Assembly (NCBI GenBank): GCA_963798085.1
Contig: CAWCRS010000003.1
Coordinates: forward strand, 640,001-704,000
Length of the DNA: 64,000 nucleotides
Source: an uncultured Gemmatimonadales bacterium
GTDB taxonomy: Bacteria; Gemmatimonadota; Gemmatimonadetes; Longimicrobiales; RSA9
Reading direction: 5' to 3'
Positions 44,262 through 60,994 of the stretch are shown here, one piece after another. The notes beneath the pieces are model-generated. The model made no database searches and was not told the origin of the DNA. It saw only the letters and a list, made by a program, of their open reading frames with translations. Each line of letters opens with the position of its first letter. The stretch's first letter is position 1. The position numbers were made by a program, and so were the translations under genes.

Positions 44262-44729
44262 TCAGTGCAGGCTCTTGAGCCACATCTGATGATTGAGCCA
44301 AAGCTTGACAGTGCCTGGCCTGCCGGTGCGAAATGCCTCCTCGCCGGCACGATGGATACGCGCGATAAGAGGAGGTTCGTGAGCGTCGAGGAACGACACA
44401 ATGCGTGGCATGGTCTGGATGAGGTTCTGAGCGAGAGCTTCATGCGTATGTTTGCCGACAAGCATAAGCAGGGCAACCCCTGCTCGCATCACCATGTCTC
44501 GCTCGATCGTGTTGTAGCGGATCTCTTTGTTGTGGGTAAGAGCGATCCAACCGCGACGACCAATTTCCCGCAGCCACTCTGTGTCTGGCGTGTCAGGCGC
44601 GAAATGTGTGTCGTGGCGTTCCACACGGAATCCTGCCCGCACCAGCGCGTCTGGGATGATGCGACCGAGATCTCGATCTGCAAAGAATATGCGATCAGGC
44701 TGCGGCTTCGAAGAGGATCGCCTCTTCAA
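44262..44729 (-). CDS. VapC45-like PIN-domain toxin
   Basis: IFFADRDLG, PDTEWL, GWIALTHNKEIRY; downstream of the DUF433 gene. Confidence 0.8.
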   Translation of the reverse strand: MKRRSSSKPQPDRIFFADRDLGRIIPDALVRAGFRVERHDTHFAPDTPDTEWLREIGRRGWIALTHNKEIRYNTIERDMVMRAGVALLMLVGKHTHEALAQNLIQTMPRIVSFLDAHEPPLIARIHRAGEEAFRTGRPGTVKLWLNHQMWLKSLH

Positions 44730-45417
44730 GCTCCGCTTCCCCGAGATTGTAATCGCGCATTACTTCTTCCGGAGACTCACCGGAATCCAGGCGCTGCGCC
44801 ACTGCCCGGGTCGAGACACCGACGCGTCTGATGATGGGGCGCCCGAATGAAATGAAGGGTGCGATGAGAATGACTTTCTGGCCAGCATTCTGCGGGAGCT
44901 TCTCCAATGGGAAGAACTCCGAAGGAAGTTTGCTGGAGTCGTACTCAATGCGCTCAAGGTACTGTTCAAGTATTGTTCGCATCGCCAGTTGTTGGGAGCG
45001 TGAGAGCTCAAGGATGTGCGTATAGCGATCCAGGAAGAGCTGCTTGGCGGAGGTCTTGAGCTGTGGATCAAGCAAGAGCCTGGTGATGCCAAGATCCTGC
45101 TCAGCGATCGCCAATGCATCGCGAATCGTGGAAAGGGTTACTTCGTGCACCAGGCGGAGCGCGCGAATGATGTGAGCCTCTACGAGATTGAAGAAGGATA
45201 GCCTCGCATCCGACGTGGCCGGCCTGTCCAATACTGGAACGAAGAAGCCGAGGTCAGCTTTTCTGCGGTAGGCCTGACCCACCGTCCAAGCTCGGAGCGT
45301 GCTTGCCGGAATCCCGGTAGCTCGAGCTGCCTCCGGGTAGGAGTACCGCGGTTCGTCGCGCGGATCGGCACCGCCGTAAAGGCTCAGGTCTACGGCACTT
45401 GTGGCGGTCTGGATGAT
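44695..45417 (-). CDS. DUF433 / VapB45-like antitoxin with N-terminal HTH
   Basis: YSYPEAARATGIPASTLRAW, LSFFNLVEAH and FGRPII motifs. The open frame extends to ATC 45417 behind GGAGG. Confidence 0.82.
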   Translation of the reverse strand: MIQTATSAVDLSLYGGADPRDEPRYSYPEAARATGIPASTLRAWTVGQAYRRKADLGFFVPVLDRPATSDARLSFFNLVEAHIIRALRLVHEVTLSTIRDALAIAEQDLGITRLLLDPQLKTSAKQLFLDRYTHILELSRSQQLAMRTILEQYLERIEYDSSKLPSEFFPLEKLPQNAGQKVILIAPFISFGRPIIRRVGVSTRAVAQRLDSGESPEEVMRDYNLGEAELEEAILFEAAA

Positions 45418-48453: not shown

Positions 48454-48598
48454 GCAGATCGTTTCTTCTGTTCACGACGCGCCGGAGGCGACAGCAAGGG
48501 CGGCGCAAGCATGTCCGCGCCCTTCGTCGCGTGGCCCGATCAACAGCCTGCCGGGCCGGCGGCCGACAGACCGCCGAGCGTGAAATGGCGTGCTAAAT
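48454..48598 (-). other. decayed attC site
   Basis: Aligns with attC 55705-55845 (TTCACGACGCGCCG...GGCGCA.GC.TGTCC...GTGAA), but the core boxes are mutated (GCAGATC / GCTAAAT). Confidence 0.65.
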
Positions 48599-48600
48599 GC

Positions 48601-49051
48601 CGTGGTGGTTCGGCAGAGGCTGATCCTATTGCACATCGTTCGGGGGTGATGGTTTACAGTCGCCATGGTAACGTGAGCCTTCCCTTTGACGGGAGGCTCC
48701 ATGCTCTGGAGGACGCAGACCATCATGGACGAACGTGCTCGCTTTGCGATCGAGGCCTCGCACTCGACGCACCCGTTTGCGGAGACCTGCCGCGGTTTCG
48801 GGATCAGCCGGCCCACCGGCTACAAGTGGCTCCGAGCGCTATCGTGACGGGCAATTCGCCGGGCTCGCCGAATCGCTCGCACCGGCCCACAATGCCCTCA
48901 CGCGACGCCACAGCCCGTCGTGCAGCGTATGCTTGCGCTGCGCCAAATGGAGTGCGGTACCCGCAAGATCCAGCGCTTGCAGGGTGTTCGACACCGTGGC
49001 CTGCCACTGCTCAGGACAACGGCTGGGATCGGCCACTGTCTCGGGTCTACA
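48601..49051 (+). mobile_element. internally deleted IS481-family element
   Basis: Near-copy of the 5' end of 51145-52494 (GAGGCTGATCC...GATGGTTTACAGTCGCC...ATGGACGAACGTGCTC); retains the right-end motif GGATCGGCCAC. Confidence 0.8.
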
Positions 49052-49056
49052 GTGAT

Positions 49057-50136
49057 TCATGTCTTGGCCTTTTGCTGTCGCCGGACGGGCGGCCTGGAAG
49101 TGACCGCTCGGAATTCGTTGGCGTCGGCAAGTTTCTCGACCAAGTGCCTTATCCAGGCCTCCTTGTACCCGTACGCATCCGCGAAGGCGTCGTACACGCA
49201 GAATTGCTCGATTGTTTTTTCCTTCTGCTTGCTGTTCGTTGGCGGCCTGACGTTGTAATGCCTCCACGCTCGTGTGTGTGTATCCTGCGTGAAGACATAT
49301 GGCAACTCGGCGGCAACGCGCTTCACGACCTCGCTCGGTTTGAGTAGGTCGGCAAATGCGACGGGAACGCGGCGCTCCTTGATGAGCGCGGCCACCTTCG
49401 CGAGCTGGGCCATTTCCTCAGGCTTCGTGGGATCGTACGGGACGAACTCGATCGACAAGTCAGAGGCACTCTCACGATTGGCGAGCTTCGGTACCAAGAA
49501 CACACTCAACGTGTACTTGGGGCTTGCAAGAACCTCTGGCGGCAGGCCGGCTCGGTAGGTCCGGACAAACTCGAGGAGATCGCGGGCGGCGGATTTCTCG
49601 AGGCTTCTTACCGCCGCGGCTTGGGATTCCGGACGTAGGGCTGAGAATTGAAGGGATACTGCTAGGGAAGCCGTGAGCGCGTGGTTCGGGGTAAACTCGT
49701 GGACCAAAAGATCCTCGAAGTTCATCAGCAGGGCTTGGCATTCGCCGTAGAGCGCCGGATCAAGCTCCGGGTGATCGCGGTGCTCAATGCGGTTCCTGAT
49801 CTTGATGAAGAACTCGAAGTTGCTCCGCTCCGGCGGGTTCTTGTCGCCCCAGTACTGCCGGAGACACTCCCCGAGTTCCCAATGCTTTGGTTCGCCGTCG
49901 ACCCGTGTGTAACGGAGACCCTTACCGGAGCCACCTTGCACGTACCAAGGCTTGATCCCGCGTGCGTAGAAGATCGCGTGGAAAAGCGCCGTGGTGGCCA
50001 TCACCATCAGGACTGCATACGTGCGAGTACGAAAGCCGCCGCCTGGCCGGTTGTAGTTCTCAACAGCGCACAGAGCACTCGCGCGCGCCTTCTGGAGATG
50101 TTGACGTGCAAGCCGGGGAATGCGCTTTCTTGACAT
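49057..50136 (-). CDS. DUF3644 domain protein (HEPN-like)
   Basis: KARASALCAVENYNRP DUF3644-type N-terminus, HWELGECL, and an RNRIEH (Rx4H) motif. Confidence 0.8.
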   Translation of the reverse strand: MSRKRIPRLARQHLQKARASALCAVENYNRPGGGFRTRTYAVLMVMATTALFHAIFYARGIKPWYVQGGSGKGLRYTRVDGEPKHWELGECLRQYWGDKNPPERSNFEFFIKIRNRIEHRDHPELDPALYGECQALLMNFEDLLVHEFTPNHALTASLAVSLQFSALRPESQAAAVRSLEKSAARDLLEFVRTYRAGLPPEVLASPKYTLSVFLVPKLANRESASDLSIEFVPYDPTKPEEMAQLAKVAALIKERRVPVAFADLLKPSEVVKRVAAELPYVFTQDTHTRAWRHYNVRPPTNSKQKEKTIEQFCVYDAFADAYGYKEAWIRHLVEKLADANEFRAVTSRPPVRRQQKAKT

Positions 50137-50193
50137 CACGCTTCTATCCTACACCGGATCTGTTTGCTGACTGTAACTGTTGCCCGCTTGCGC

Positions 50194-50239
50194 CTTTTAT
50201 GGATTGTGTGCTGTCAAGCCCTACGGTTCCGAGCGACAC
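50194..50239 (-). mobile_element. orphan IS110 right-end fragment
   Basis: CTTTTATGGATTGTGTGCTGTCAAGCCCTACGGTTCCGAGCGACAC closely matches 58109-58153. Confidence 0.7.
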
Positions 50240-50304
50240 AACCCCCCCTCGGACGGGACAGCCCACATGCTGGCTGAGGCCGTGGCCTCGCCGGTCCTTG
50301 CGGC

Positions 50305-50943
50305 TTACGGCTCAGAATGCCGACCCGTGGCCAAGTCGATTGATTCAACGATCAGAAGAGCGCGATTGACGATTCGGCGATATCCTTCGTCGAGCATTGC
50401 CAGTACGCTCGCGTGGCTCTCTGCGCTGATCGCAGAATCGAAGGTCTTCTCAAACAGCAGCATCAATAGATCGACCTCCGAGTTGTAGAAGTCAAGCTGA
50501 TCCCTAAGCCAATGCAGCATCTGTTGCAGCTCCAAAGAGAGGATGACGAACCCGACTGTTTGGCTTCCCAAGAATGGAGCCGTGTAGCGAACCAAGTGGA
50601 GAGGCCTGCTCGGACGGCCTTGGGCGTGGCTCAGGGCGTTGAGATCTGGCGCTGACATGCCTGCGAGTCGGCGCATCCCGAGAATGCCGTCAACATCGTC
50701 CTCCGGACCCGCCGTCACCCTAGCGATTCCTGCTCGAATTCGCTCAAGCAGTCGATCGTCCAAGAGGGCGCGGCGGTAAGCGACGGTCAGAGCCAGAATG
50801 GCAAAAGTATCGCGAAGCTGTCCAAGCTCTGCGAACAACGCCGTCTTGAGCTTCTTGCGTTGACGGGGACGATCAATGACCTCGGCAAGGGGGCCAGAGA
50901 ACAGGCCCAATGCCCAGCCTAAGATCAAAGTCAGGACGGGCAT
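50305..50943 (-). CDS. hypothetical cassette protein, N-terminal TM plus helical domain
   Basis: 212-aa ORF directly downstream of attC 51007-51142. Confidence 0.7.
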   Translation of the reverse strand: MPVLTLILGWALGLFSGPLAEVIDRPRQRKKLKTALFAELGQLRDTFAILALTVAYRRALLDDRLLERIRAGIARVTAGPEDDVDGILGMRRLAGMSAPDLNALSHAQGRPSRPLHLVRYTAPFLGSQTVGFVILSLELQQMLHWLRDQLDFYNSEVDLLMLLFEKTFDSAISAESHASVLAMLDEGYRRIVNRALLIVESIDLATGRHSEP

Positions 50944-51006
50944 TGGGTCAGCATAGTCCCAGGTGTATGTCAGCCATCTTCACGAACAAGTCCCTCGCAC
51001 GATTCC

Positions 51007-51142
51007 AGATAACGTCTCAGAGTTTCATGTCGGGCCGGAGCCGCTTGCGGCACCAGCCCGTTCACGCCATTCAAGAGCTACCCGCCTCGGCCGTTGCGCG
51101 GCGGGGTCGCGCCAGCGATTCCGCATGAACCTGTTGTTAGGC
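51007..51142 (-). other. attC site
   Basis: Plus strand AGATAAC-7nt-AGTTTCATG...CATGAAC-CTGTT-GTTAGGC. On the minus strand R''=GCCTAAC and R'=GTTATCT. Confidence 0.8.
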
Positions 51143-51144
51143 GC

Positions 51145-52494
51145 CGTCCGGGGTTCGGTCGAGGCTGATCCTTTACACATCGTTCGGGGGCGATGGTTTA
51201 CAGTCGCCTTGGTAACGTGAGCCTTCCTTTTTTGACGGGAGGCTCCATGCCGTGAAGGACGCAAACCATCATGGACGAACGTGCTCGCTTTGCGATCGAG
51301 GCCTCGCATTCCACGCACCCGTTTGCGGAGACCTGCCGCCGGTTCGGGATCAGCCGGCCCAGCGGCTACAAATGGCTCCAACGCTATCGTGACGAGCAAT
51401 TCGCCGGGCTCGCCGATCGCTCGCACCGGCCGACGAGCTGCCCTCACGCCACGCCACAGCCCGTCGTGCAGCGCATCCTTGCGCTGCGGGACCAGATGGA
51501 GTGCGGTGCCCGCAAGATCCAGCGCTTGCTGCGCGACAAGTTCGACACCGTGCCTTGCATCGATACCATTCACGACATCCTCTGCCGGCACCAGCGCGTC
51601 ACGCCGCGCAGGCCTTCCCGCCGACGTACCCATCCCGGGCCACCATTCACGTCCATGGCCCATGCCAACAATGTCTGGACCGCCGACTTCAAGGGTGAAT
51701 TCAAGACGGGCGATGGCCGCTCCTGCTTCCCGCTCACGATCCAGGACGGCTACTCCCGCTTCCTGCTCGAGTGTCGTGCCTTCACCCGCCTCGATCTCAA
51801 AGCACGGCACGGCGATTCGATCACCTCTTCCACACCTGTGGACTGCCGAATCGCATCCGTACCGACAATGGCCATCCCTTCGCATCCCGTGCCCTTGCAC
51901 GCCTCTCCCAGCTCTCCGTTGACTGGATCAAGCTGGGCATTCTCCCCGAGACCATCGAACCCGGCAAACCCTATCAGAACGGCCGGCATGAACGCATGCA
52001 TCGCACGCTTGGCGAGCGCACCGCCACCCCACCCGCTCCAACGCTTCGTGCGCAGCAGCGCCGCTTCAACGAATTCCGCACCTTCCACAATACCGTGCGT
52101 CCACATGAAAGCCTGGGCCAGGAGACCCCCGCTTCCTTCTATACGCCGTCCGCGCGTCGGCTCGCACGCACCCCTTCACCGCTGGTCTATCCCCGGCACT
52201 TCGAACAACGCCTGGTCAGTCAGCTCGGCTCCATCCGCTGGAAGAAGCGCTTCATCCATGTGAGCCGCCTGCTCGCGCACGAATACGTCGCGCTCGAACC
52301 GATCGCCGTCTCCGTCTGGTCCGTCTATTTCGGTCCCATTCACCTGGGTTGGCTTGACGAAACAACGATTTCCGTATCATGGACGCACGACGACTGCAGC
52401 AACGACAACGCTGACCATCAACCCCCGAACGTTCTGTAAACGATCACCCCCACTGCTCAGTTGCAAAGGATCGGCCACGCCTACTGCAACTACG
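51145..52494 (+). mobile_element. IS481-family element with disrupted transposase
   Basis: ATG CCG TGA (W to stop) at the start; GYKWLQRY, WTADFKG, RTDNG and QNGRHERMHRTL DDE motifs; frameshift near 51810. Imperfect terminal IRs (GATCCTTT...GGTTTACA / TGTAAACG...AAAGGATC). Confidence 0.88.
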
Positions 52495-53477
52495 ACTTCC
52501 GGCGGCCGGCAATCACAGCGGTGAGGGCTAGGATGACGACGCCCACGAGAATCGCGAGAAATGCGATTGTGTTGCCAGTCAGTTTGCCTTGAGCGAAAGA
52601 CACGCCGCCATACATTATCGGGCCTGCAGCAATGATGATACCGATCATCATCAGCACTTTGCGCTCAAACAACAGCTCGACCTTCTCAAGAACGCTCTGA
52701 CGGCCTGCCTCGATTTTCTCAGAAAGCACCTTGGTCTCGTGCTCGATCGTCTTCGCAAGGCTCTGTGTGCGTTCTTGGAACTCGTCCTTCATTATTCGCA
52801 CGTCAGATACAACCTCGAATTTACCATGCAAGTTGGTCAGTTCCGTACCAATGTGATCGAACGGGTAGCCCGCCTCGCGTAGTTGCTTCTTTGGATCGAG
52901 CTGCCCGAAGCTCGAGGCAACCAGCTTACGCTTCGGAATGTCCGCAGGTATGCGGCGGCCGGAGCGGACAACGCCCTCCGAATCTTGGTATCGGTGGCTC
53001 GGGTGGGAACCATAAGGGAAATCAGGTCGCTCTTCGCCCTCAAGGACGAGGATGGTCAATTTGAAGATCGGTTCCCCATACTGAATGATGAGATCCTTGA
53101 CAGAACCGTTTCGAAGGCCCCAATTCAGCGAACCCCGGAACCCGGCATCGATCTTCGTCGCAACTTGCGAGATTCCCTCTCGCATTATCGTGGTTGTGGG
53201 CGTAATGAAGCCCATCAACATGCGGTTGGGCAGCACCTTGTGAACTGCTTCGGCCGTGAAGTCAATAGCCTCTAGGCTAGAAATGACCACGCTTTCGCCG
53301 GGCAGACCTTGAGGAACATACCCTCCTCGAGTTCGGCCTCCTCCCCCGTTGAGTGAAAGAGGACCTCTTTCCCGAGTCGAAGTTCGATGCCATTGGGGTT
53401 GAGAAGCTCCTCGCTCGCGTTCTGGAGAACGGAACCAAGAAGTCTCTTTACATTCGGTCAGCGAGCAGCTTGGCCAT
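52490..53477 (-). CDS. dCTP deaminase/dUTPase-fold protein with coiled coil and two C-terminal TMs (frameshifts near 5' end)
   Basis: Reconstructed N-terminus MAKLLADR-VKRLL...NPNGIELRLG; then PGESVVISSLE, IDAGFRGSL, GEPIFKL and YQ motifs. Confidence 0.75.
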
Positions 53478-53530: not shown

Positions 53531-53676
53531 GGCCAACGTCCCGCGGTTTACGACGCCGCGAGAGCCCGGCGACAGCCGGGCGAAGCGCTGTCCGACGCCT
53601 CCCCGTGCTACCCCTTTCCCGTGCCTGCGGCGGCCAGCGGCTGCAGGCCGCGCAGCGTAAACCCAGCGTGTTATGC
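53531..53676 (-). other. attC site
   Basis: Plus strand GGCCAAC-7nt-GGTTTACG...CGTAAACC-6nt-GTTATGC. On the minus strand R''=GCATAAC and R'=GTTGGCC. Confidence 0.85.
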
Positions 53677-53752
53677 GCCGTTCGATCCGCCATGTTGCGG
53701 GCGGCCCGGCTCTAGCAGCACAAGTCCACCGGCACAACGGAGCTCTGGGGCC

Positions 53753-54892
53753 TTAGAGTATTTTCGCCCGGTATGGAAACCTCACGCTGAACGTTGTCAT
53801 ATACATTCCGCGGTACCCCGCATCAGGCTCCTCATGTTGTTCCACGGTTATCTCTGTTCCCAGGTGTTCCTTCGCAACCAGTTGGCTCAGATACAGACCA
53901 TATCCTGCGCCTTCCTCGACGGCCTGAAGCGCAGCCTCACCACGGAAGAATGGTCTGAAGACCTTACGGATTTCGTCCTTCAGAATCTTCGGCCCGAGCG
54001 AGGAGACCTCCAGTACGATCCCGTCACGTTCATCTTGGACGAAAATCTCAATTGTAGAGCCAACTGGGGCGTACTTCACGGCATTGTCGATAAGGGTGTG
54101 CGGGATTACGGACGACGCCTGCGGGTTTGCGACGACGTTGGCATAGCTCGATCCAGCTACAGTCACCCTGAGGTTCTTGGCGTCGAACCACGACTGATAG
54201 ATACGGACATACTTGATCACAGCGCCATGCAGGCGGAACGCAACGCACTCCGATGCGATGGTGAGCCATTCCGGGCGTAGCAGAAATTTCGCCACATTGA
54301 GCTTTTCTCCAAGGAACCGAGCTGCTTCATAGATCGCGCGTTCGGCCCGCGATGCACGGCCTAGTTTATCCTCGAACGTCCCGCCAGGGTGCAGTTCCTC
54401 GATGATCACATTGATGTTCTGACTGATCTGCGCATTGATCTGCTTGTAGTCATGTACGAACGCAAGGCCACGTTGTATGTCTTCCTTCAGGGACTTGAGA
54501 TAGTCAACCCGAAATTGGTCCACGTCGAGAATGTCTTCCCGTTCTTCGGTAAACCTAATCTCCCTTTCTTCTTTTCGGCGACTGAGAAGGGCGCGGTAGT
54601 AGTCAAGTGCCGCCTGGAATTCCTTGTTCGGAACAGGGACCACTTGACGCCGGCGACTTTTGCGTGCCGGTGTCGCGTAAAGCCAATCCTCAAGGACCAC
54701 GCCCGCGACCAGCAATTTGCTATCGACTCGTTGGTAGTTGAAGCCGTACTTGCAAAGCTGCGCGCCCTCCTTACTCTCGTGCTCACAAGGCCGATCCATG
54801 CAACGGAGGCATCGCGACGGCCACGGGCGGAGGCTGCCATCGCCGTAATGGCCATTGTAGAGGTGCGGGAATGGGAAGAAAAGGGTATCCAT
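53753..54892 (-). CDS. soluble histidine kinase with Cys-rich N-terminus
   Basis: H-box FVHDYKQ, N-box LIDNAVKY, F-box VFRPFFRG and G2 GAGYGL; Cx2Cx4Cx10C at the N-terminus; no TM. Confidence 0.85.
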   Translation of the reverse strand: MDTLFFPFPHLYNGHYGDGSLRPWPSRCLRCMDRPCEHESKEGAQLCKYGFNYQRVDSKLLVAGVVLEDWLYATPARKSRRRQVVPVPNKEFQAALDYYRALLSRRKEEREIRFTEEREDILDVDQFRVDYLKSLKEDIQRGLAFVHDYKQINAQISQNINVIIEELHPGGTFEDKLGRASRAERAIYEAARFLGEKLNVAKFLLRPEWLTIASECVAFRLHGAVIKYVRIYQSWFDAKNLRVTVAGSSYANVVANPQASSVIPHTLIDNAVKYAPVGSTIEIFVQDERDGIVLEVSSLGPKILKDEIRKVFRPFFRGEAALQAVEEGAGYGLYLSQLVAKEHLGTEITVEQHEEPDAGYRGMYMTTFSVRFPYRAKIL

Positions 54893-55540
54893 CAGTGCAC
54901 CAATAGCTGCAGGACCGCTATGCCAGCCTGCGCGACTTGCAGTATGAGGCCAACTGTCTGCCGTTCCTCTCGGGCGTCACGAAGATAGCTGGCCAGTGAG
55001 TCTGTGTCGCGAAGTAGAATGGCTCTTTTGGCCACCTCCTGGAGCTGCCTTGGCTCGATGTCGGCGGAATGGGATAGCGAACCGATCCGGTCTAGGTAGA
55101 AGGCAAGCGAAAACCGTCGTTGTAGCAAGTCATCAATGGTTCGTTTGAATTCAACGTAATCCGCGCGCTTATCAAGTGTCGCGTCCGCAAGATCGAAGAA
55201 TTCCTTGTATTTCAGGGGCCAATCAGCGTTTGAATACGCGACGATGACTTGGGCCGGCGCGACCTTCTTCAAATGCCGAAGGACCCCGAGGCCTGCGTCT
55301 TTGGAGATGGCTGTACCCACGCCGTGGATGTCAAGCAGGATAACATTCGAAGTAGCCAGCCTCGAGTTTCGGCAAGTCAGTGACGTCTTGCCATTGTTCG
55401 ATGGTATAGCCATCGCGTTGGAATAGCTGGAGATAGAAGAACTCCGCGTCGTCGAGGACGAGCAAGCGAGCTCGCTTCGCAATTTCCTCGCTCGAAACAT
55501 GAGGCCAAGGCTTGGGACGGCGCTTGAATGGCCAACGCAT
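54892..55540 (-). CDS. receiver-domain protein (frameshift near 55345)
   Basis: LLVLDD, VILLDIHG, IVAYS, LDK; short helical C-terminus; its stop overlaps the kinase ATG. Confidence 0.8.
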
Positions 55541-55704: not shown

Positions 55705-55845
55705 GCATAACGTTCATTGATTCACGACGCGCCGAGAGCCGAGCGAAGCCCGGCGCAGGCGTGTCCAACGCCTTTCCCAATCTACACCTATCCCAGCCCG
55801 GGTTGGCACAGCCGAAGGCTGCGCCGGGTGAATCTGGTGTTAGCG
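55705..55845 (-). other. attC site
   Basis: Plus strand GCATAAC-7nt-GATTCAC...GTGAATC-TGGT-GTTAGCG. Its R' (GTTATGC) is the exact complement of the next cassette's R'' (GCATAAC at 53676). Confidence 0.85.
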
Positions 55846-55942
55846 GCCGTGCGTCCGTGCCTGAATACACGTGGTTCTGTGGCGAAGCGGGCATCACCAC
55901 GCACCCGCCTTGGCGGGCCGACCGGTTGTCTCCTCTCAGCAG

Positions 55943-56957
55943 CTAATTGCAGGGCCATACACCCCCGCGTAGCACAACGCCTGCTTCCCGAAGGTAGCTG
56001 TTGCGGCTCGTGGACCATCGCCGGTCAATGCCACTCCTGTCGAGCAATTCGCCGTGCAGGTTCGATACGAATCGGTCAAGCAGGATCGTCAGATACATTA
56101 GGAGGTGAGCAACCGCGCGTGGCGCGGTTGCGAGGGCGCCCGCCGAGACAGGAACGGCCGATTCGAATCTATCGATTACGTCGTTAATCTCTAGAACCCT
56201 GTCAGTGTCCAGCGTACCAGATTCGCCCAAGCCGCCCAGACCGCCTGACCGCATCATAGCCGAACCCCGGACGATAGTTTATGGCATTGCGTATGGCGCT
56301 CGGCCATTCGCGACCGAGGATGTCGCCTGACCGCTTGATTGCGCGAAATGCGCGTTCCTCACCGGCTGAGCCGGTTCCGCTTGGGTACTTCTGAAGCCAC
56401 TCAGTACAGATATCAAACCACGCCCTCCAGACGTTGTCGTGGAGCCTGCCGTGCGCCTTTCGCAAGGAGATCTCTCTCGCGGTAGCGCCGACGCTCGTCC
56501 CGCAGTTGACCCGGTAGGTACCTGACCCGGCCTTCCGCCCAGCGGCTCCGGCTGCCGCCAGGACTCGGCTAACGTCCGCGTCTACGAACCACGCAGTCCT
56601 ACCGATAAGACGCGTCGCGGCGAGCACCAAGAAGAAGGCCCAATAGTACCAAGTGATCACAAGCCACGCCGGACTCCAAGTACCACCGCTACTCTGCGCG
56701 CGCCAAAGGAACACTTGGTGCTCAGCTGCGTGGTCAAGCAGGTACTCCGCATTCCCGATGAGAGCCGAGCCGAACTCCATCGCTGGCACAACGAGCGTGT
56801 ACCCTTTGCTCGATGATGCGCTAACGGTAAAGTATCCCGCTTGCGTCCACGAGCCAAGCGTGTTGGGTCGCCCGAACGTGTGCGAAACGCCGATCGGGAT
56901 TGCATCCAGCGCGAGCGACCTTGCCTCTTGCCAGACGTTGCCCTTGGGGAAGCTCAA
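55943..56957 (-). CDS. hypothetical, HEPN-like protein (frameshift near 56230)
   Basis: ITWYYWAF, GRLHDNVW and IRNAINY motifs; continues in ORF 55943-56257; overlaps the DGQHR gene stop. Confidence 0.65.
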
Positions 56958-57972
56958 AGCATTGCCTCGGAGATCGGAGTCCCTTTGCGGAGAGCGGCGT
57001 GAAACAGTGCAACTATTCCGCGCTTGGTGAGGGTGGCGCGTCCGGTGATTCCAGAACTGAGGTCAAGGCGTGCAAGTGGTCGGACTACCATTTGTATATC
57101 GGCCTGCTTGGCACTGCCGCGTTGATTTATCGCGGTCCGGACAACTTCATCGAGCACTTCAAACATGGCCTCAAAGAACGCCGCCTTTGTGAGATTGCGC
57201 TTATCGATGAGTTCGGCGTCGAAAGCATTGAGATAGTTCAAGATGAGTTTGAACCGCATGTCAGGGTCAACATCCAAAAGAACACCACTGTCAAGGATCT
57301 GCGACAACGCGCGATTGAACGTAACGCGCGAGATCTTTCCGCTGAGCGATCTCGCTGCACTCAGGCGGCCCGCAAGGGGGGATCGGGGATGCTTCTGGAG
57401 CTTGTCGAAGTACTCCCGGAGGATCTGTTCCTTCGCGCTTTCGATTTCTGCGACTTGCTTGATATCGAGAAGCAAGGCGGCCGGTACTCCACGCTGAGTC
57501 GTGTTAATATCGATGAAGAGTTTTGCCTCCTCAGTGCGCGAGAGACCGTCGTATATGGCTACTGGAACGCGATGACGAACCGAGCACTTTTGATAACCCC
57601 AGAGCCTGTGCTGACCATTGATTACGAGAAAGGCTCCCTGCACTCTTGCAAAGGATAAGGACTTGGTCCGGCGGGCGTACGAGAACTCGGCCACATTTGG
57701 GCGGATAGGACGATGTTGCTCGGAATCGATCCAGAACCCGCTGCCAGGTAGGCGGCGATGTCATTTGCGCGCGTCTCGTTCAACGCTCTCTGAAATCCAG
57801 TTGCGGGATCGTCATCACGACGGGAAACGAAGCAACTTGGAAAAAGATCATCCACGGGGATCGTGGCAAAATAAAAGCGGTGGCGATTCTGTGTCATGAG
57901 CAGCGCTGGATACGAGATCGGCCTTCGCACACGCCGGCTCGCTGCTTTGGCAGTAGGTTTCTTGGATGACAT
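56954..57972 (-). CDS. DGQHR (DndB/ParB-like) domain protein (frameshift near 57695)
   Basis: GFQRAL, IPSNIVL, VINGQHRL and LFIDINTTQRGV motifs. Confidence 0.85.
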
Positions 57973-58108: not shown

Positions 58109-59547
58109 CTTCTATGGACTGTCTGCTGTCAAGCCCCACGCTTCAAGCGACACGATTCCGTTCAGTGCTGTTCACACTGTTCCAGCGAACGGCTCGACGT
58201 CGGCGGCTTCGTGAGTTTGTGCGGCAGGCTGCGCCGTCACGCCCTTCTATCCGTGCCGGCCGCAAGGGAGCCGGTCACCCTCTACTGCATGCGCGCGATC
58301 CACTCGTGCGCCCTGGAAGCCGCTGTCGGGATGGGCTCCATTTAACGTACGGTTTCCTCATGGGAGAACCACCCGCCATAACGAGCTCCACCTCTCGACG
58401 TCGTCTGTCAAACAGCGGTGCTTGCTTCCGATCAGGCCGTACGCAGCTTCGCGCCTTCCGGTACCACGCCCGCATCCGCATAGCGCCAGAGCGCAATCAG
58501 CAGCTTGCGCGCCAGTGCCACAATGCCGATCCGCCGCATGCGTTTCCCGCCATGACCGAAGCGCGCTTCGTACCAGCGGCTCAGCTGACTTCGCGGCTGG
58601 AAGCGCAGCCAGCACCAGGCAATCTCGATCGCCATCGCCCGGACCTGCCGGTTCCCCGCCTTGGTGATCCCCAGCTCGTGGTCCATCTCGCCGCTCTTGT
58701 GCGGCGTACCCACCAGTCCCGCCAGCGCTCCCACCTGACGTCGATTGCGGAACTGTCGCCAACTGAAGAATTCCATGCTGAAGGTCCAGGCACTGTTCAA
58801 GCCGATCGCTTTCAATGATCCCAGGCGACGCACCATTGTGTACGCGGGCTCACTCGACGTGCGGAGCAGTCGCCGCCGCTCCGCTTCCACTCGCCGGATC
58901 TGCTGCTTCACCAGCAACACTCGCTCCCACTCCCGCTCCAGCCGTGCCCGCAGGGCCGCAGGGAGCTTCGTCCGGTTCCAGAGCCGCGCACGGCTCAAGC
59001 GTGCGAGAAAGTCCGTGACCAGCTCGAGCCGCAACCCCTGACTGGCCAGCAGTCCCTTTCGGTTCGTCAGCCGCGTCTGCTCGTGCTTCAGCGTTTCCAG
59101 CTCCCGGTGCAGCTGCCGCCGGTCTTCCTCTTCCACACTCGGAACCTGCACCACGCTCCAGGTGCGCACCTCTCCGCCACAGTACTCCACCAGCATGCGC
59201 AGCAGCTTCGTCAGATCCACACGGTCCGTCTTCACTCGCCGCCGCCCTGTCCGCACCTCGAAGCTCGTCGCATCCACCACCAGACTTCTCACTCCGTTCG
59301 CCTCCATAAACCGGTGCAGCCAGAATCCCTCACGTCCCGCTTCGTAGCAGCACACCACCTTCGCATCGCTCTTCAGACTGAAGCGCCGCTTCGCACGTGC
59401 CACTTCCTCCAGAAGCGCTTCTCTGTCCCGTGCCTCGATCACTCGCTCGCGTACCGGTTGCGCCGGCGCCGTCTTGAACCCCAGATTCCACTTCGACTGG
59501 CCGATCTCGATCGCCATGTAGCTGCTGGCCGGCTTGGAACCACGCAC
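58109..59547 (-). mobile_element. IS110-family element: transposase 58432-59547 plus 3' non-coding end
   Basis: AIEIG, CYEAG, KTDRVD, GLVGTPHKSG, ITKAGN and VALARKL motifs. The right end reads CTTGACAGCAGACAGTCCATAGAAG; the left end appears missing. Confidence 0.9.
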
Positions 59548-59551
59548 CCGC

Positions 59552-60466
59552 TCATTCGCTCACTTGGAAGTAATCGGAGTCGAGCCGCTTGAGCTCGTAC
59601 GCTTGAACGCGGGCAACGCCAATGTCATGATCGATCATGAGCCCTGCCAGCGCCTGACCATCGACTAGTACAATCTTGCTGTCGATGTTGGCCGCGTACT
59701 GCGTGGCATCTGCCGTGAACGATGAACTGGTGATAAAAATCCCCTTTCGAGCGCGAACACCCTGCAGTGCGCCCGCGAACTTCTGGATTTCAGGTCGACC
59801 TACCGTCCCTTCCCAGCGCTTTGCCTGAACGTAAATAGTGTCCAGACCGAGGCGATCCTCCTTGATGATTCCGTCGATGCCGCCGTCGCCGCCACGGCCG
59901 ACCGCCCGACCCGCGTCAGCTCTTGACCCGCCATAACCCATGGCAACGAGAAGCTCGACGACGAGGTTCTCAAAGAACGACGGCGGACAGATTCGAACTC
60001 GCTCGAGGAGGTCGGTCACAAGCTTGGTTCGAATCTGCTCGTAACCGTATTCGATGTGTTCCTCCGGAGTGAGGTCGTCAATTGGTGGCTTCGGGCGCGT
60101 AGGCTTGGCCGGCCCATCGCCGCGTCCTGCGCGGTAGCCAACGTATTCCGGGAACTGCTCAAGGGTCTTCATGCTGATGCGGCCAGGCGTACTGGCGAGA
60201 ACCTCACGGCCTCGCGCAGTGATCCGATAAACCGCTCGACGAGGTGATTCGATCAGGCCAGCCGCTTTGAGATGCGATTTTGCCCACGCGACCTTGTTGA
60301 CGAAGATGGTCTGCTTGCCACTGGGCAGGAGTTGAGCGCGCTCATCTGATGTCAGGGCGAATTGCTGGGCCAGCGCCTCGAGTGTTTCATCGTTGGGATG
60401 TTCCCGACCGTCCGCCATGTGCTCCAGCAGCGGCCGCATCAGCGTTTGAAAGTCAGGAATCGGCAT
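59552..60466 (-). CDS. mrr: Mrr restriction endonuclease (type IV)
   Basis: MPIPDFQTLMRPLL Mrr_N; GDGGIDG, YVQAKRW and KGIFITSS motifs. Confidence 0.93.
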   Translation of the reverse strand: MPIPDFQTLMRPLLEHMADGREHPNDETLEALAQQFALTSDERAQLLPSGKQTIFVNKVAWAKSHLKAAGLIESPRRAVYRITARGREVLASTPGRISMKTLEQFPEYVGYRAGRGDGPAKPTRPKPPIDDLTPEEHIEYGYEQIRTKLVTDLLERVRICPPSFFENLVVELLVAMGYGGSRADAGRAVGRGGDGGIDGIIKEDRLGLDTIYVQAKRWEGTVGRPEIQKFAGALQGVRARKGIFITSSSFTADATQYAANIDSKIVLVDGQALAGLMIDHDIGVARVQAYELKRLDSDYFQVSE

Positions 60467-60994
60467 TGTGATCAGGGGTTGAGCTTGTGCGCGTAACGAT
60501 ACAGCCTCGGGCGTGCGCGGGCCAGTTGCGCCTACACCAAAACTCTGAACGTCGTCAACCGGAGAACACACCGCCGATCGTGCCCGCCCTCGCCCAACAG
60601 CATTGAACCCTGTCTCACGTAGCTCGTCGCCAACATGCCACCGAACCGCCCATGCCTTCAACTTCTCAGTAACGCACACGCACAATGGATATTGACCGCC
60701 CTGGCCCGCCCAATTCCCTTCCCCGGCCCGTTCCGCCGTTGCCCGGCAGTAACCCTCCCATCACCCCCGGCCGGCTCGGCGGACAAGACGGCACGACCTG
60801 CCGCGGACCCGCACCGGCGCGCCCGCCGAAACGGCGAAGTCAATCCTCGGCACGACTCTGCCCACTGGAACGCGCTCGCCCGCTCACAATGGCTCGGACC
60901 GCGCTTCGTCGTCTGAAACCGTGACAGCCCGCATTTGCGAATACCGCACTGACCGCCTCCAAGCCGAGTCCGCCGCGCGCAATGAGCAGAACGC

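Follow-up and report, generated by a model that had tools for sequence, protein, structure and literature searches.

Two groups of mobile elements specialised on attC, the recombination site of integron gene cassettes, have been described, namely insertion sequences (ISs) of the IS1111-attC group such as ISKpn4 and ISPst6, in which a DEDD recombinase is directed to one end of attC by a guide RNA encoded in a long non-coding region (PMC11187229), and group IIC-attC introns, which are RNA retroelements (PMC3001079). Insertion at a fixed distance beside a tyrosine-recombinase site is known from the IS1202-family elements ISAba32 and ISAjo2, which encode a single TnsB-like DDE transposase of 441–457 aa with the order helix-turn-helix (HTH), HTH, DDE, barrel, have extra inner binding repeats and TGT ends, cause duplications of 5–6 bp and insert beside xrs/dif sites with the left end always leading (PMC10132070, bioRxiv 2022.12.17.520857); how a lone DDE transposase finds such a fixed spot was stated as open for IS1202. 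An IS481 element of Pseudomonas fluorescens SBW25 targets repetitive extragenic palindromes (REP), with one end always at the same position of the repeated site, TGT at both ends and a 4-bp duplication (Ngan et al. 2024, PMC11708052). While all these behaviours are already known, no attC-targeting IS481 was found in the literature searched (ISfinder, TnCentral and subscription papers were outside reach), and the closed supplementary tables on IS1202 might list related cases. In this study, we analysed a stretch of 64,000 nucleotides from an uncultured Gemmatimonadales bacterium (the window; GCA_963798085.1, contig CAWCRS010000003.1, in our notation G000:C3:640001-704000, with G000 for this genome and C1, C2, C3 and C12 for contigs), in which two IS481-type elements lie beside attC sites, together with their relatives in other genomes. 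Targeting of attC is a real behaviour of the whole clade to which these elements belong, with a geometry that differs from the one first proposed.

The two IS481-type sequences are old, broken members of one clade. As had been noticed from the letters of the window alone (the sequence-only reading), they are related, have the same orientation and lie by two different attCs, each between a cassette gene and its attC; they are 89% identical over 410 bp, and blastn gave no alignment between the attCs at 48455 and 51007. The element ends had been placed at CGT..ACG, exactly 2 bp outside the R'' box in both cases. In 79 loci of relatives, however, the ends read GGT(A/T)C or TG(A/T/C), with the first ACA of the inner repeat following 25–26 nt later; they contain two or three repeats spaced about 25 bp and are exactly abutted by target duplications of 3–4 bp. 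Therefore, the true ends in the window are 5'-GGT at 48607 and 51152 and 5'-TG at 52488, and the gaps to the R'' box amount to 8 and 9 bp. The letters 'GC' and 'CGT' that had suggested the 2-bp offset are common in attC flanks, since the R'' box is followed by GA in 32 and by GC in 23 of 62 cases, with 'CGT' next in 18 of 62. The proposed restoration of the deaminase frame (AAG TGC GCC TAA) upon removal of the element was also given up, because the deaminase-like open reading frame (ORF) terminates by itself, its TAG (52490-52492) lying 1 bp beyond the IS, so that no frame needs restoring. The assignment of the adjacent box as R'' was retained: in 34 of 50 cassettes, the longest ORF points that way, and among 72 attC-adjacent sites in relatives, the R'' model scored above the R' model at 66, the other side being used at 6. 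By these two results, R' as the adjacent box was ruled out.

For a survey of insertion sites, the discovery set of 79 loci was extended by 80 loci from metagenomes, 14 viral ones and those from two groups of related genomes (61 and 401), all chosen by protein similarity only. Since the search alignment consisted mostly of attC-adjacent elements, the later sets were enriched for the clade but blind to the flanks. After removal of repeats, 233 of 237 elements were kept, and ends were dropped in case of a weak call, less than 20 nt of flank or a start other than GG or TG. Hairpins of attC were rated with our own scorer at a cut-off of at least 9.5. The pooled counts include loci from unpublished genomes (L084 and L092 of G015, 2 of the 20 phylum-genome positives; L188 of G116, 1 of the 14 near-matches described below; L215 of G224, TG end only), and no claim depends solely on these.

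A GTTR box started 12–17 bp from the GGT end in 92 of 170 cases and from the TG end in 4 of 166, with 42 of 1230 for random positions, and the distances peaked at 15 bp (62 sites; 18 at 14 and 6 at 16). By set, boxes were found at GGT ends in 28/57 (discovery), 44/67 (metagenome), 20/40 (phylum genomes) and 0/6 (viral) cases, and at TG ends in 0/58, 2/58, 1/44 and 1/6. The metagenome and phylum-genome sets alone gave 64/107 versus 3/102 (p 8e-21, which is overstated because relatives are not independent). The cut-off for hairpins was reached at 68 of 166 GGT ends, but at 1 of 160 TG ends and at 12 of 1230 positions drawn at random. Further attCs occurred in the flanks of 28/41 attC-adjacent loci versus 7/33 outgroup loci. 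Whole-genome censuses of five genomes gave 7/7 full-length copies on target in G438, 8/9 with GTTA at 15–16 bp in G265 (the ninth at a degenerate arm), 3/3 with reversed gene in G439 and 3/3 in G366, one of them with a GTG box, but only 2/7 in G440 (see below); identical copies in G265 and G438 each lie at a different attC. No preference among R'' boxes was detected (GTTAG in 62/72 targeted versus 55/67 background boxes).

With about 90 insertion sites in relatives and these censuses, the idea of attC targeting beside R'' in fixed orientation was borne out, and comparison of sequences makes it almost certain for this IS481-type clade. Of the fixed distance, the principle survived and the 2-bp figure did not: the modal layout in relatives is R'' box, 5 bp, a duplicated 3-bp target and the GGT end, leaving the attC intact and the element at the 3' end of the cassette gene. 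This layout (box, 5 bp, duplicated 3 bp) is confirmed by IS-free alleles in G438. Duplications of at least 3 bp were found in 17 of 61 attC-adjacent relatives with both ends (31/74 of the other elements), whereas the window copies have none. Comparison also shows that the GGT end faces attC irrespective of the direction of the transposase gene, which is reversed in 5 of 72 attC-adjacent elements with the GGT end still at attC. Genes reversed relative to the GGT and TG ends were seen in L013, L014, L027, L112, L120, L127, L138 and L143, the intact ones on at least two branches.

The elements of the clade are about 1.3 kb long and carry one DDE transposase of about 390 aa between asymmetric 5'-GGT and 5'-TG ends. 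In a FastTree phylogeny of 124 intact transposases, all 52 box-positive ones grouped in a single clade of 74 (support 0.94), the remaining rows of which were off-target (13) or unscored (9), while 0 of 35 scored rows outside were positive. The positives form 46 clusters at 90% and 20 at 70% identity (median identity 56%). In a quick tree, 23/23 attC rows lay in a clade of 36 (SH-aLRT 98). Since the tree clade was drawn round the counted feature, all elements were also sorted by blastx, with the box at 89/130 in-clade GGT ends versus 0/34 outside. The window copy matched clade members best (416 vs. 321 bits), and the genomes that contain the clade carry at least seven different phylum-level names. 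No close plasmid relative was found; the best matches reached 48% or less, several of them annotated as 'IS481 family transposase'.

Terminal inverted repeats starting with TGT at both ends are the usual signature of the IS481 family. In the clade, one end reads GGT and the other TGA in 63 of 65 elements, and inverted repeats are present, so we file it as a divergent IS481-type lineage and not as a typical member. The transposases of intact relatives contain the domains HTH_32/28, LZ_Tnp_IS481, rve and rve_3, as does the window copy in broken frames. Two intact relatives scored 220.6 and 219.4 bits against NF033577 of NCBIfam, just under its cut-off of 224, which was by far the best family (127 and 111 bits for the IS3 model). 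The family's target duplication ranges from 2 to 15 bp (PMC10045372, citing ISfinder). Membership in the IS1202 family was rejected in view of about 390 aa, the 3-bp duplication, attC as target and 28–32 bits versus 250 for NF033594; the IS1111-attC group was rejected in view of the predicted DDE/RNase H fold with IstA, TnsB and retroviral integrases as top structural matches. The clade shares with IS1111-attC elements and group IIC introns the specialisation on attC, whereas its DDE enzyme, short ends, duplication of 3 bp and position entirely outside an attC that stays intact set it apart from the former, and its chemistry is unrelated to that of the latter. It resembles ISAba32 and ISAjo2 in transposase type, domain order, inner repeats and oriented insertion beside a recombination site, and differs in that the GGT end leads even with the gene reversed. 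Compared with the SBW25 element, it has the same size, a single transposase starting MPW, inner end repeats spaced 25 bp (by eye), a fixed end position and a short duplication, whereas the SBW25 barrel has no S-x-N-G-G-x-R motif (by eye); by description, both belong to the same broad lineage.

Outgroup clades adjoin their own repeat types at the GGT/TGT left end: an A-rich palindrome (L047, L052, L055, L060, L065, L076, L147), a REP-like hairpin (L071, L148, L165, L167, L168) or tandem heptamers (L066, L157, L202). At the opposite end, which in the clade faces the cassette gene, the TGA start is found in only 5/38 elements outside the clade, and the window copy starts with TGC. Stops in all three frames lie within 27 nt of the TG end in 44/65 in-clade versus 2/38 other elements, and many cassette ORFs finish 3, 19 or 23 nt inside this end; such stops may reduce the harm done to cassette genes, or go back to a single ancestral accident.

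As best overall explanation, which we regard as fairly probable, the clade inserts outside R'' after its own transposase has read the attC arm, and may move through circles that carry over donor bases. For the reading step, we slightly favour direct read-out, in which the transposase itself would recognise the roughly 20-bp L''-spacer-R'' arm with a core G-x-x-A-G in double-stranded DNA, most likely via its C-terminal beta-barrel with the clade-specific motif S-x-N-G-G-x-R-W, and would need neither guide RNA nor integrase. This is suggested by off-target sites. At 14–16 bp, a one-mismatch GTTAG was found for 14 of 41 in-clade off-target ends (1–4 of 41 in other distance ranges), compared with 2/128 TG flanks and 0/34 outgroup ends. 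Twelve of these 14 sites lack a hairpin, five of the twelve keep a 3-bp duplication, and likeness to the attC arm persists in the 14 nt upstream (mean -0.8 vs. -9.9, p 5e-6). Residues marking the clade (numbered as in L042) gather in the barrel: S328 (100% vs. 6% outside), N330, G332 (97% vs. 0%), R334 (100% vs. 16%), W339 (85% vs. 0%) and N341. The fold predicted from 79 sequences (pLDDT, the predicted local distance difference test, of 86), which replaced a shallower first one (19 sequences, pLDDT 61), consists of two helical domains, a DDE core and a C-terminal beta-rich domain; its top structural matches were IstA, TnsB and integrases, with aligned ranges mostly ending at about residue 315. 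In Mu and retroviral complexes, the domain equivalent to the barrel can touch target DNA. The target is probably read by the element's own enzyme rather than by a guide RNA, for which the non-coding ends of clade elements (81–96 nt upstream; downstream mostly 27–57 nt, 117–160 in 4/37) appear to leave little room; a guide-RNA region as in IS1111-attC elements was rejected, these ends being short and, judged by sequence, largely end repeats.

Instead of touching DNA, the barrel could dock on an integrase or host factor bound at attC, as proposed for the IS1202 family at XerC-bound xrs. In IstA and TnsB, the barrel serves to dock a protein (PMC11208146), contact of the transposase with XerC/D was named by Siguier et al. 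as one possibility for xrs targeting, and an integron integrase exceeded the cut-off in 4 of 5 checked genomes with on-target copies as well as in this genome. However, the one-mismatch sites without hairpin are used at the same distance, sister clades adjoin unrelated repeats with no recombinase evident, and G439 has three of three copies on target and no integrase match, the completeness of this genome not being given. Furthermore, the integron integrase IntI binds a folded single bottom strand, and a staggered 3-bp duplication would imply a duplex target. We therefore consider docking unlikely. The transposase might also recognise the extruded attC hairpin or cruciform, i.e. structure instead of sequence, and insert into the duplex beside its base, since most targets are full palindromes of 51–168 bp with unrelated central parts, and several outgroup clades and the SBW25 element adjoin palindromic repeats. 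At a symmetric stem, however, either foot should be available, and the insertions favour the R'' side by 66 to 6. Half-sites and one-mismatch sites that have no partner arm also serve as targets, the distance is measured from the GTT box, and elements of the attC clade were not found beside the other hairpins used by outgroup elements, so that this possibility, too, appears rather improbable. Loose insertion without targeting, with survival only of copies in harmless cassette ends or spread by cassette shuffling, is already disfavoured and very improbable, because, although arrays are dispensable DNA and roughly one in three in-clade ends is off target, it does not account for the single-base peak at 15, the asymmetry of the ends (92/170 vs. 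4/166), identical young copies at different attCs in G265 and G438, or the 0 of 34–35 outgroup elements at attC.

The scarcity of duplications among attC-adjacent elements calls for a further step. Movement would occur through a circle whose junction holds 2–4 nt of donor flank, which are sometimes kept instead of a duplication; this would account for many duplication-free copies and for the wider spread of distances. We give this carry-over, which is weaker than direct read-out, an even chance. A distance of 15 was found in 16/17 duplicated copies versus 26/44 others (p 0.012). The left 3-mer of two G438 copies is absent from three IS-free alleles of their cassette family, and two G265 copies share a short word with the flank of an intact copy. 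In SBW25, 4 donor bp were copied along with a new duplication-free IS481 insertion, which Ngan et al. explain by insertion into a break (PMC11708052). In a test for swapped flanks, cassette-end complementarity averaged 7.8 of 9 for 6 duplicated copies and 6.9 of 9 for 14 others, six of which reached at least 8. In duplication-free copies, the two flanking 3-mers were no more alike than shuffled ones, and no circle junction was found in 268 loci, the samples for carry-over being small; seven pattern hits for such junctions in viral contigs were scored as chance. At the three IS-bearing cassettes of this genome, cassette-end complementarity is 5, 7 and 6 of 9, compared with means of 8.0 for 52 adjacent pairs and 6.5 for all pairs; these low values and the absent duplications are as expected of old, rearranged copies.

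Several points weigh against the explanation as a whole. The hairpin thresholds were set after the first loci had been seen; the tree clade is defined by the counted feature, and its parent node is weak (0.71). GGT ends without GTTR at 12–17 bp make up 41 of 130 in-clade cases, only 2 of 7 copies in G440 are clearly on target (three left ends truncated or unclear), and the in-clade element L022, flanked by a 3-bp duplication, is inserted inside an attC, 9 nt within one R box. Atypical features of the window copies are the distances of 15 and 16 bp from the box, the absence of a duplication and the variant barrel motif LVSQLGSIRW. A third frameshifted clade element of the genome, located beyond an R'' box in the C2 array (G000:C2:384942-386258) and different from the window copies (55–63% amino-acid identity in pieces), starts 25 bp from the first G of its box, about one helical turn more than usual. 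GTTAG occurs 2268 times in this genome, which is too common for specificity, so that a longer arm must be read. The barrel residues may mark only shared ancestry, the hairpin-less sites may be attCs that decayed later, and a barrel docks a partner protein in IstA and TnsB, as mentioned above. The likeness of the beta-rich domain to the Mu-transpos_C barrel is a lead from predicted structure (Atlas leads of 0.86–0.90 and a weak IstA match, E 0.008), and the model as such comes from sequence comparison and structure prediction throughout. Duplications may also be removed by recombination between copies, adjacent deletion or chimeric assembly; recombination would not widen the distance, whereas a spacer of 2–4 nt would.

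The findings add a DDE transposon clade to the short list of elements homing to integron cassettes. Insertion leaves the attC undamaged and places the element within the cassette, so that it could in principle be mobilised together with cassettes; pairs of copies can also cause deletions or rearrangements of arrays. The question of target finding becomes directly testable here, thanks to sister clades with other targets, barrel residues that are specific to the clade and off-target sites that occur naturally. As a bolder, tentative view, the lineage could consist of single-protein, RNA-free, site-directed integrases, in which the target is set by a short hairpin in the C-terminal barrel, the orientation by the GGT end, and the stops that the attC clade has acquired in all three frames of its TG end spare cassette genes. 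Possibly, attC would then be the target of one clade, and REP-like palindromes, an A-rich palindromic repeat and tandem heptamers those of others. If this were true, an exchange of barrels between clades would retarget the element.

Table 1. Location of the attC sites, IS copies and cassette genes in the window (E, E-value)
Feature	Coordinates	Strand	Remarks
attC 1	48455..48600	-	degenerate; nhmmer E 1.7e-28 to the genome's attC family
IS copy 1	48607..49036	+	relic; GGT left end, degenerate right-end remnant
DUF3644 cassette gene	49057..50139	-	PF12358 E 8.5e-44
212-aa cassette ORF	50305..50943	-	without Pfam match
attC 2	51007..51144	-	R'' box 51136-51142; nhmmer E 1.7e-20
IS copy 2	51152..52488	+	1337 bp; ends 5'-GGTT and 5'-TGCA
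IS481-type transposase pseudogene (copy 2)	51247..52439	+	NF033577 best family
dCTP-deaminase-like cassette gene	52490..53341 (start approximate)	-	TIGR02274 E 1.5e-7, below cut-off
attC 3	53531..53678	-	no IS
attC 4	55705..55847	-	no IS

The features of the window locus are listed in Table 1. In IS copy 1, the 5' part of the transposase is frameshifted and about 0.9 kb are missing; homology to copy 2 stops at about 49004 before the right-end remnant, with 49036 as approximate terminus. Copy 2 has two to three inner repeats at each end, spaced about 25 bp. Its transposase is interrupted by a stop at codon 3 and a frameshift near 51750-51800 and loses similarity after 52376, while the catalytic motifs WTADFKG, TDNG and HERMH are kept; tblastn against an intact relative gave 59% and 51% identity in two frames. 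These breaks may represent decay or read errors; a search for sequencing runs that might hold an IS-free allele of the window gave none. The deaminase-like cassette gene encodes a hydrophobic stretch at the C-terminus.

The attC sites, identified with our own scorer and nhmmer, show R''/L''/L'/R' boxes, a 5-bp R''-L'' spacer, an extra base in L'' and an array context, and belong to a family of 63 hidden Markov model hits in the genome, most of them in the long C2 array. In attC 1, the R'' box (48592-48598) has one mismatch in the core triplet and folding is no better than for shuffled sequences (z -1.0), while attC 2 reached a de novo score of 12 and a fold z of -2.1; z-scores in the window span -0.7 to -2.1, the sites being partly decayed. 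With four attCs within 48.4-55.9 kb, the locus has the composition of a cluster of attC sites lacking integron integrases (CALIN). No TIGR02249 integrase match was found on C3, and the sole match over the cut-off in the genome is on C1, hence the window cluster is an isolated array. This C1 gene (G000:C1:447332-448435) has the same direction as the cassettes, with the first detected attC region (C1:476299-482481) 28 kb further; a split integrase-like match at C12:7972-8781 is below the cut-off, and attC array pieces reach contig ends on C1, C2 and C3.

An IS110-family element (NF033542 over the cut-off) with a long downstream non-coding stretch is located at 58109-59547. A 97% copy of this stretch lies inside the large attC array on C2 (C2:393013-393343), and a remnant of 46 bp (85%) in the window array at 50194-50239. 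The neighbourhood is defence-island-like, with a PIN_10/DUF433 toxin-antitoxin-like pair (44262-45282), a histidine-kinase-like and small-ORF cassette (53753-55500), a DGQHR gene split into two ORFs (56954-57972) and an Mrr nuclease (59552-60685).

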